Below are positions 1-564 of a stretch of 32,000 nt of DNA, piece after piece. Numbering within the stretch: the first letter of the stretch is position 1; each line of letters begins with the position of its first letter. The stretch is taken from NCBI RefSeq assembly GCF_002075285.3, contig NZ_CP021983.2:3450001-3482000 (forward strand). Reading direction: 5' to 3'. The position numbers and the translations under genes were made by a program. The notes under the pieces are model-generated. The model saw only the letters and a list, made by a program, of their open reading frames with translations, was not told the DNA's origin and made no database searches. This DNA comes from Halomicronema hongdechloris C2206. GTDB taxonomy: Bacteria; Cyanobacteriota; Cyanobacteriia; Phormidesmidales; Phormidesmidaceae.

Positions 1-564
1 GTAGTGCAACCATTGGTCTGATCCGGCAGGTCGTAGTCCGATACAACGTCCGGCGTCATCGTAGCGGTAGTCGCTTTGAAACGTTACGCCGTCGATGGTC
101 TGTTGGATGGTACTGACCCGCTGCTGCGGATCGAACTGAACCACGGTGACACAGGTCGGGGTAGCAAAACACACCCAACCCAGTCCGAAATCAGTGATGG
201 TGGTGTGTCCTCGGCGATCGCTGAGGCAACGCAACCGATTTTGAGCGTCGTAGCTGTAGTGCAGCACCCGTCCTGCTGCTGTCTGACGGCGAATCAGGTT
301 ATCGCGGGCGTCGTAGGCAAAGGTCTGGTGGGTTCCATTGGGATAGTCTACGGCGATTAATCGTCCCCGATCGTCGTAGCGGTAGGTGGGGGAATCGGCA
401 CGGTCATTCAACCCTTTCTGGGACGTTGCCGTTGACGATTGATCCGGGGTTAGCTGATGGGACTGAGCCCGGGTCGGCTGCGTCTGACCCGAGGGCGTCA
501 CGGGGGACAAATTCATGCCCAGGACTGAAATGACTTTTTCCATCGAAGGTTCCCTCAGCAGCAT
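1..564 (-). CDS. RHS/YD-repeat protein, N-terminal part (the ORF runs off the left edge of the window)
   Basis: This ORF is absent from the ORF track because it has no stop in the window. My minus-strand translation from ATG 564..562 reads MLLREPSMEKVISVLGMNLSPVTPSGQTQPTRAQSHQLTPDQSSTATSQKGLNDRADSPTYRYDDRGRLIAVDYPNGTHQTFAYDARDNLIRRQTAAGRVLHYSYDAQNRLRCLSDRRGH...FQSDYRYDDAGRCIGL. The repeated YxYDxxGRL / YDAxxNL units are the canonical YD/RHS repeat. An in-frame stop at 598..600 bounds the 5' end, and there is an alternative ATG at 543..541. Confidence 0.8.
   Translation of the reverse strand, partial: MLLREPSMEKVISVLGMNLSPVTPSGQTQPTRAQSHQLTPDQSSTATSQKGLNDRADSPTYRYDDRGRLIAVDYPNGTHQTFAYDARDNLIRRQTAAGRVLHYSYDAQNRLRCLSDRRGHTTITDFGLGWVCFATPTCVTVVQFDPQQRVSTIQQTIDGVTFQSDYRYDDAGRCIGLRPAGSDQWLHY

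Follow-up and report, generated by a model that had tools for sequence, protein, structure and literature searches.

Analysis of a 32,000-nucleotide stretch of the genome of Halomicronema hongdechloris C2206 (contig NZ_CP021983.2, positions 3,450,001 to 3,482,000, hereafter the window) showed the beginning of a gene for an RHS-family protein at its left edge. The gene lies on the minus strand, directly after the gene of a 1104-residue all-helical protein, and a cluster of contractile tail genes lies upstream of both. From the gene order in the window and in related loci, the genetic coupling of the RHS protein to the tail machine is well supported. With a modest lean towards this reading, the fragment in the window was taken for the 5' part of a gene whose product is an RHS-family accessory or effector protein dedicated to a contractile injection system (CIS) of phage-tail origin.

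The minus strand of 1..564 was an open frame that continued past the left edge of the window, and the partial frame was for this reason missing from the program-made list of open reading frames (ORFs). An earlier note on this DNA had placed an unlisted, partial RHS ORF here, and the frame was confirmed. The translation of the fragment was 100% identical to residues 1-181 of P0014, a protein of 1302 amino acids and 143 kDa from H. hongdechloris C2206 annotated as “Putative deoxyribonuclease RhsC”, the full-length sequence of which was taken from the protein database. A word-indexed protein search with the 188-residue fragment had given a single weak match, a scan of genome contigs a single unrelated RHS of Acidimicrobiaceae, and an exact DNA pattern had no match in metagenome contigs. 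The gene is therefore full length and not a stub, and it is intact. A pseudogene or truncated RHS gene, which the note had raised as a possibility, was rejected, as the 1302-residue protein was collinear with its orthologues. The true start was ATG 543..541, with the protein opening MEKVISVLGMNL… / MEKVISVLGMNLSP…. This codon was preferred because all orthologues begin with M-[EQ]-[KR]-x-I-S, because the ATG at 564 is ACG in the nearest relative, and because a Shine-Dalgarno-like GAGG 7 nucleotides upstream of ATG 543 is conserved. Starts at ATG 564 and at 516 (MNLSP…) were rejected.

The protein is a member of the RHS family by sequence and by fold. All four YD repeats quoted in the earlier note (YRYDDRGRL, FAYDARDNL, YSYDAQNRL and YRYDDAGR) were found, with the first YxYD at residue 54, and Pfam RHS_repeat matched the 188-residue fragment with E=1.8e-14 (54 bits against a cut-off of 22). 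On full-length P0014, the YD repeat TIGR01643 was matched with E=9.4e-24 and the Rhs-associated core TIGR03696 at residues 468-504 with 43.4 bits (cut-off 32.5), and Pfam RHS PF03527 matched the orthologues weakly. The AlphaFold2 model showed an all-beta shell over residues 53-460 with a predicted local distance difference test (pLDDT) score of 70-92, and its best Foldseek matches (E=5e-26 to 1e-17) were the Rhs cocoons of type VI secretion systems (T6SS), teneurins and TcB/TcC. Six orthologues with overall pairwise identities of 43-82% were aligned for region identities. The shell was compact, with about 500 residues, and residues 53-558 had a mean pairwise identity of 51%. It ended in NRYVFCLNDPINNLDLDGHS in P0014 (DLDGH), a degenerate form of the RHS core end motif PxxxxDPxGL, and P0016 reads …VDPMGNS there. 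For this motif, which the note had proposed to look for, the core domain above its cut-off and the conserved position were thus recovered, with a degenerate sequence. Domain-profile scans showed no PAAR or VgrG domain in the full RHS protein or in its orthologues, which agrees with what the note had stated for the leader.

The note had described a disordered leader rich in S, T, Q and P ahead of the first repeat. The string that it quoted was present, residues 1-52 (motif and linker) were hydrophilic (58% S/T/Q/P/N/G, net charge 0, mean Kyte-Doolittle hydropathy, KD, of -0.78), and residues 1-51 had a pLDDT of 23-30, which is consistent with disorder. The description did not hold for the whole leader, as residues 1-13 formed a conserved motif and only the linker after them was variable (Table 1). 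The motif was also present in the more distant members P0134, P0136, P0137 and P0144, and it is a candidate docking or loading signal. As a whole, the leader was a hydrophilic, predicted disordered N-terminus of the type found in effectors of extracellular contractile injection systems (eCIS), with a putative role in loading. In line with the note, which had seen no signal peptide, the N-terminus was not Sec-like as judged by hydropathy only and with no dedicated signal-peptide predictor, the hydrophobic stretch being about 9 residues long and the maximum KD 0.55 over 19 residues. The helical protein (759-4073, minus strand) had a conserved N-terminus of its own, M-x-x-GIL[ST]Q[LF]P[SD]LT, loosely like VISVLGMNLS in the RHS motif. 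By analogy with cargo pairs of other systems, this loose likeness could reflect a shared docking or loading signal.

The C-terminal region (residues 559-1302, 744 amino acids) was larger than the shell and had a mean pairwise identity of 62% among the six orthologues, against 51% for the shell. It contained a hydrophobic segment of 29 residues at 574-602 (KD 2.03), which was modelled as a long helix (562-607), two further and weaker hydrophobic segments, an invariant HEMQHVFQY motif (HExxH), and about 400 residues of tandem immunoglobulin (Ig)-like domains, four to five in number, with a pLDDT above 85. The structural neighbours of the Ig-like domains were adhesion molecules, S-layer proteins, the GhpA grappling hook, and phage Ig, tail-fibre and major-tail proteins. 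For residues 520-905, a model built from 6 sequences was of insufficient quality and was replaced by one from 16 sequences. In the 16-sequence model, most of residues 559-900 remained at low confidence except for the HExxH core, and no fold was assigned to the HExxH module. An exhaustive profile search with this module gave 80 representative clusters, mostly RHS proteins of 700-2300 amino acids. Pfam RHS repeats were found in 20 of the 35 relatives scanned, and a few relatives had downstream phospholipase D (PLD), tyrosinase or peptidoglycan-binding domains. Pfam eCIS_core (DUF4157, PF13699) was one of two marginal Pfam candidates for the HExxH region (E=0.29-0.33). It matched two of the 35 relatives at E<=0.01 (best 0.003), with all matches below the gathering score, so that membership of the module in DUF4157 is at most suggested. 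The module profile had no meaningful match among PDB sequences, none was found in viral contigs, and metagenome contigs gave two short fragments. There was no other HExxHxxQ ORF in any examined locus.

Related loci were fetched with homologues of the 1104-residue helical protein. An RHS gene of the same family stood directly after a tape-measure-like helical gene of about 1100 residues in seven distinct loci, with contractile-tail genes upstream in five (six with the window). In locus L002 the helical protein was 85% identical and an RHS protein of 1308 amino acids followed after a 217-nucleotide gap. The corresponding values were 41%, 1258 amino acids and 9 nucleotides in L003, and 37%, 1193-1214 amino acids and 11 nucleotides in L004/L005/L006, while L007 had an RHS protein of 1278 amino acids after a gap of 39 nucleotides. 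In L008, where the helical protein was 22% identical, the RHS protein had 2289 amino acids and its gene overlapped the upstream gene by 20 nucleotides. In L009, a partial upstream gene matched the C-terminus of the helical protein (E=9e-15) and overlapped by 14 nucleotides the gene of an RHS protein of 760 amino acids. L007 and L009 held the pair on short contigs. The position directly downstream of the tail operon, as claimed in the earlier note, was kept in the window, in L002-L007 and in the distant L008 and L009. No match to the helical protein was found in viral contigs. L007-L009 had a GC content of 0.64-0.72, and the octamer HIP1 (highly iterated palindrome 1) was rare or absent in them; this composition suggests that the pair also occurs outside cyanobacteria.

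The genes beyond the RHS gene were not the same in every locus (one had transposases and another citrate synthase), so that conservation of the cluster ended with the RHS gene in the window and in L002-L008, which places this gene at the 3' end of the CIS cluster. In L002 (17639-21880), the RHS gene was followed by several transposase genes (DDE_Tnp_1, ISL3), which makes the DNA past the cluster a boundary prone to rearrangement. The slot itself was occupied differently in other clusters. In L017, the sheath and a 261-residue protein were each 54% identical and the baseplate wedge 58% identical to their counterparts in the window, with a large S8-protease gene (14210-16145) directly after the 261-residue gene and no RHS gene in the slot. 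The helical protein was followed by an S8 giant gene in L010/L011 (L010 11710-18093) and by an NHL propeller in L012. The conserved pairing within a variable slot therefore marks the RHS gene as an accessory or cargo module and not as a core structural gene. The 258-residue gene next to the helical gene was the last gene common to related clusters without the helical and RHS pair, and it marks where the conserved core gives way to the variable distal slot. Its product had no family match in Pfam, PHROG or profile scans and, judging from its position and N-terminus, may be a cap or terminator. From the occupants of the slot, subtilases may be recurrent partners of this tail lineage. The window also had a 740-residue S8 subtilase with a P-domain and a C-terminal RTEDGGRR repeat in two copies, just upstream of the sheath (19384-21606, minus strand), and it had only generic similarity to the S8 protein of L017 (E=0.005).

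L008 differed at its C-terminus. Its RHS protein (gene 13305-20470) had the core end motif at about residue 484, HExxH at about residue 1195 and a C-terminal PLDc_2 domain (E=1.2e-14) with an HKD motif. An ORF of 96 amino acids, a likely immunity candidate, lay 5 nucleotides downstream.

The spacer between the helical and RHS genes was 83% identical to that of L002 overall and 89% in 544-651, compared with 67% at the third codon positions of the flanking genes, while the other relatives (L003-L007) had 9-39 nucleotides at this position. No terminator-like or sigma-70-like promoter site was predicted on its minus (coding) strand, and it had no match in Rfam. Its fold was not more stable than that of shuffled sequence (z=0.72), and its hairpin motif occurred once in the window.

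Table 1. Coordinates of the RHS gene, the adjoining genes and the tail cluster within the window
Feature	Position	Strand	Basis or remark
First YD/RHS repeats of the beta-shell, residues 53-181	1..387	-	Pfam RHS_repeat; shell reaches about residue 558, outside the window
RHS gene, 5' part	1..543	-	Codons 1-181 of the 1302-residue P0014; continues beyond the left window edge
Variable S/T/Q/P-rich linker, residues 14-52	388..504	-	22% mean identity; length varies among orthologues
Conserved N-terminal peptide MEKVISVLGMNLS, residues 1-13	505..543	-	81% mean pairwise identity, six orthologues
215-nucleotide spacer	544..758	-	Hairpin 621-646; Shine-Dalgarno-like GAGG ahead of ATG 543
Tape-measure-like all-helical protein, 1104 residues	759..4073	-	PHROG tape-measure families, E=1e-11 to 1e-6; directly upstream of the RHS gene
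Conserved 258-residue protein	4076..4852	-	Genes of 259-261 residues at the same position in L002-L006, N-termini clearly similar; L017 counterpart 54% identical
Contractile tail or injection-system structural genes	4877..18630	-	Pfam and PHROG matches
Fibre-like proteins	6809-7288, 5219-6790	-	PHROG tail-fibre matches reported for the cluster
Baseplate wedge	7444-8748	-	PHROG baseplate matches reported for the cluster
Baseplate_J	8758-10671	-	Pfam Baseplate_J
gp25-like	10668-11096	-	Weaker Pfam GPW_gp25 match
Spike, OB-fold	12342-12998	-	Pfam Phage_base_V
Hub-like protein	12995-14041	-	Phage_GPD-like, weaker Pfam match
Tube	16394-16894	-	No Pfam match
Sheath	16960-18630	-	Pfam Phage_sheath_1/1C

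The tail cluster contained no head genes. Besides the genes in Table 1 it held a DNA_circ_N-like protein (weaker Pfam match), and the order DNA_circ_N, GPD, base_V, gp25, Baseplate_J and wedge looks closer to that of Mu/P2-type tail modules than to that of Afp/PVC-type clusters. The criteria for Afp/PVC-type eCIS are Phage_sheath_1, Baseplate_J, a Phage_T4_gp19 tube and a DUF4255 terminator (PMC8651086). Here the sheath and Baseplate_J were matched, and the tube and the 258-residue candidate terminator had no Pfam match. The helical protein was 100% identical to XM38_032750. A P/T/S-rich protein of 399 amino acids without a family match (14644-15843, minus strand) sat in the canonical tape-measure position, between the tube and DNA_circ_N-like genes. 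The tape-measure-family matches belong to the distal 1104-residue protein and not to this one, so that there are two candidates for the measurer of tail length. An ORF of 147 amino acids after the spike (11902-12345, minus strand) occupied the position of the PAAR_motif protein of L008 and was overlapped in another frame by a second ORF (12116-12481, minus strand). It was rejected as a PAAR protein, having no detectable similarity to the L008 protein and no Pfam match. About 750 nucleotides upstream of the sheath gene (18631-19383) had no ORF of 70 amino acids or more and are presumed to be the promoter or regulatory region of the tail operon. The window further contained the atp operon (23356..29366) and 32 copies of the HIP1 octamer.

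RHS proteins are an established cargo of T6SS and of Tc toxins, and the T6SS effector Tse5 hides hydrophobic membrane-inserting segments behind its core motif. The T6SS Rhs effectors (RhsA, Tse5/RhsP1, Tse15 and Advenella/Salmonella Rhs; PDB 7q97, 8cp6, 8uxt and 8qja) have the same YD beta-shell and Rhs core as P0014 and were its best structural matches. They are delivered by a contractile machine, and contractile-tail genes also lie beside the P0014 gene. P0014 differs from them in having no PAAR, prePAAR, clade domain or VgrG partner, with no T6SS membrane-complex genes in the window. Its shell is about half the usual size, its DPxGL cleavage motif is degenerate, and its 744-residue C-terminal region exceeds the shell and is conserved rather than polymorphic. 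TcC, which acts with TcB, is likewise an RHS half-cocoon of similar length with a core motif followed by a C-terminal region. Unlike TcC, P0014 has no TcA or TcB beside it, its C-terminal region is far too large for encapsulation, and its context is a contractile tail and not a Tc locus.

Effectors of eCIS are encoded at the 3' end of their clusters, have disordered N-terminal signals and often carry DUF4157 (PMC8213781, PMC11297309). The cargos of eCIS and of thylakoid-anchored systems (tCIS), such as AlgoCIS Cgo1/Cgo2, Anabaena Alr3311/Alr3312 and the eCIS-associated toxins (EATs), share with P0014 the distal cluster end, the hydrophilic disordered N-terminus and an HExxH module ahead of a variable C-terminal region (PMC8213781, PMC8894136, bioRxiv 10.64898/2026.05.27.728243). 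DUF4157 is present in Alr3311/3312, which are putative tCIS effectors of Anabaena (PMC8894136). P0014 (1302 residues) is similar in size to Cgo2 (1228 residues), the loading of which needs its disordered N-terminal domain (bioRxiv 10.64898/2026.05.27.728243). In contrast to these cargos, the leader and the HExxH module of P0014 are separated by the RHS shell, the HExxH region falls below the Pfam eCIS_core threshold, and no AAA+ loader gene is present in the window. RHS was not seen in the eCIS effector surveys searched.

By gene layout, the pair was also likened to Sle1/Sle2 of Streptomyces lividans and Tme of S. davawensis, in which a helix-rich tape-measure-like protein stands beside an HExxH partner and a CIS cluster and the downstream functional domains vary, as here (PMC13277306, PMC11126660). 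Sle1 is tape-measure-like, and its DUF4157 partner Sle2 bridges to the tube initiator (PMC13277306). The present pair differs from Sle1/Sle2 in that the HExxH partner is a 1302-residue RHS protein and not a small DUF4157 protein, and in that it lies at the distal end and not upstream of the sheath. The literature searched did not describe RHS proteins as dedicated partners of contractile (eCIS/tCIS-type) systems other than T6SS, and it contained nothing on the tail cluster of H. hongdechloris.

The proposal of the earlier note that the RHS protein is a toxin payload or cargo stood in part. The genetic coupling, the distal position and the PLD domain of the distant relative speak for it; the conserved 744-residue C-terminus and the lack of a recognisable toxin and of a conserved immunity gene speak against it. 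The C-terminal toxin domain and downstream immunity gene that the note had suggested looking for were not recognised in the cyanobacterial orthologues, and the downstream genes differed between related loci. A classical polymorphic toxin with an immunity gene was rejected for this clade on the conserved C-terminus and the differing downstream genes. The RHS protein is unlike a classical small-toxin carrier, and two defining features of RHS polymorphic toxins were absent, namely a variable toxin with its immunity gene and a PAAR/VgrG context.

Several results weigh against an accessory or effector protein of the injection system. The C-terminal region is conserved and not polymorphic, and Pfam and a PDB profile search showed no recognisable toxin domain in P0014 or in the cyanobacterial orthologues. 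The Ig-like arrays are more like adhesins, phage decoration or fibre domains than toxins, and the relationship of the HExxH region to DUF4157 is sub-threshold. No conserved small gene that could be an immunity candidate lies downstream of the RHS gene in L002-L007. The conserved 215-nucleotide spacer between the operon and the RHS gene could mean separate regulation. Pfam scans showed no AAA+ ATPase of the Afp15/Pvc15 type in the 32-kb window, and neither a Pfam-detectable tail terminator nor a T4_gp19 tube was found in the cluster or its flanks, the missing terminator being counted here too. In the study on Afp18, an attempt to load an RHS-like toxin into Afp failed (bioRxiv 10.1101/2023.11.13.566157).

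If the RHS protein is nonetheless an accessory or effector of the machine, its N-terminal peptide and tether would attach it to the particle, either at the spike or baseplate or with the helical partner as intermediary. This step is proposed by analogy with the N-terminal signals of eCIS cargos and with the Sle1/Sle2 pair. The RHS shell would shield the hydrophobic helix until delivery, as in Tse5, and contraction would deliver the HExxH/Ig region (the PLD toxin in relatives) to the target membrane. The note had considered an RHS cargo unusually large for a tube lumen, and on length alone this objection did not hold. Afp18 (264 kDa), which is loaded through a 20-residue signal (bioRxiv 10.1101/2023.11.13.566157), and Cgo2, with 1228 residues (bioRxiv 10.64898/2026.05.27.728243), are loaded despite their size, and length is therefore no obstacle. 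The difficulty for loading is the folded beta-shell together with the lack of an AAA+ unfoldase gene in the window. Since the window has neither an AAA+ ATPase nor a detectable terminator, the known unfoldase-dependent loading of the lumen should not be assumed, and with the folded shell and no AAA+ gene, mounting on the outside, at the spike or baseplate, is no less plausible than loading into the lumen.

A different role, which is judged rather unlikely, would have the protein serve the machine structurally, as an adhesin or as an anchor, and not as a cargo. The helices would then sit in a membrane (the thylakoid or cytoplasmic membrane of the producer, or an envelope) and the Ig array would bind a surface, so that the protein would tether or aim the particle in the manner of Cis12/Cis13/Cis19. 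The 29-residue hydrophobic segment with its two weaker companions, the four to five confidently modelled Ig-like domains with matches to adhesion, S-layer, GhpA and phage fibre-type proteins, the C-terminus conserved among orthologues, the lack of an immunity-like gene downstream in L002-L007 and the NHL beta-propeller in the same slot of a distant locus all fit this role. A membrane-anchored cyanobacterial CIS also has a precedent in the thylakoid-anchored Anabaena system with Cis12/Cis13/Cis19 (PMC8894136). However, the L017 cluster has no RHS gene at the slot, so the protein does not belong to the core; fibre-like genes are already present in the cluster; and the L008 relative has a PLD toxin domain and then a small gene.

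It is improbable that the gene is an independent one for a polymorphic toxin or a surface protein, driven by a promoter of its own, with the product exported by another route. The spacer is apparently constrained in the window and in L002 and could hold a promoter or an element of the 5' untranslated region, several export routes are known for RHS proteins (PMC8651086), and the annotation is that of a generic RhsC. Adjacency is nevertheless kept in seven distinct loci at helical identities of 22-85%, and the gaps of 9-39 nucleotides or overlaps in L003-L009 imply co-transcription there. Neither a Sec-like signal nor PAAR, VgrG or T6SS genes were found, and neither a sigma-70-like promoter nor a terminator was predicted on the coding strand of the spacer.

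Similarly improbable is an autonomous toxin module of the Tc or teneurin type that is only carried along with tail clusters, in which the helical protein would be the translocation or membrane-insertion partner of the half-shell: the shell of about 500 residues is near the TcC half-cocoon in size, with TcC and TcB-TcC among the Foldseek matches, and the pair is a conserved unit, seen on short contigs in L009 and L007 and often translationally coupled, but the helical protein matches tape-measure families and not TcA or TcB, no TcB-like second half-shell was found, and the pair stands at the end of a tail cluster wherever the flank suffices (L002-L004/5/6 and L008).

With the accessory or effector reading kept in front, it is tentatively proposed that these proteins form an undescribed class of non-T6SS contractile-injection cargo. 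In this class, a compact RHS half-shell with a conserved N-terminal docking peptide would be fused to a membrane-helix/HExxH module and always paired with a tape-measure-like protein. The pair would serve as an interchangeable payload cassette at the distal end of a Mu-like tail machine, apparently without an ATPase, in cyanobacteria and other phyla. If this is true, phage-tail-like particles would deliver RHS proteins by a route distinct from both PAAR mounting and unfoldase-driven loading of the lumen. The 13-residue N-terminal peptide could serve as a loading or docking tag. The analysis also defined an uncharacterised HExxH module, flanked in about 80 protein clusters by an RHS core on one side and a variable C-terminal domain on the other. 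A CIS cluster is present in about 40% of cyanobacterial genomes (PMC8894136), and the conserved pair of RHS and tape-measure-like proteins is a candidate for what these widespread and functionally obscure machines carry.

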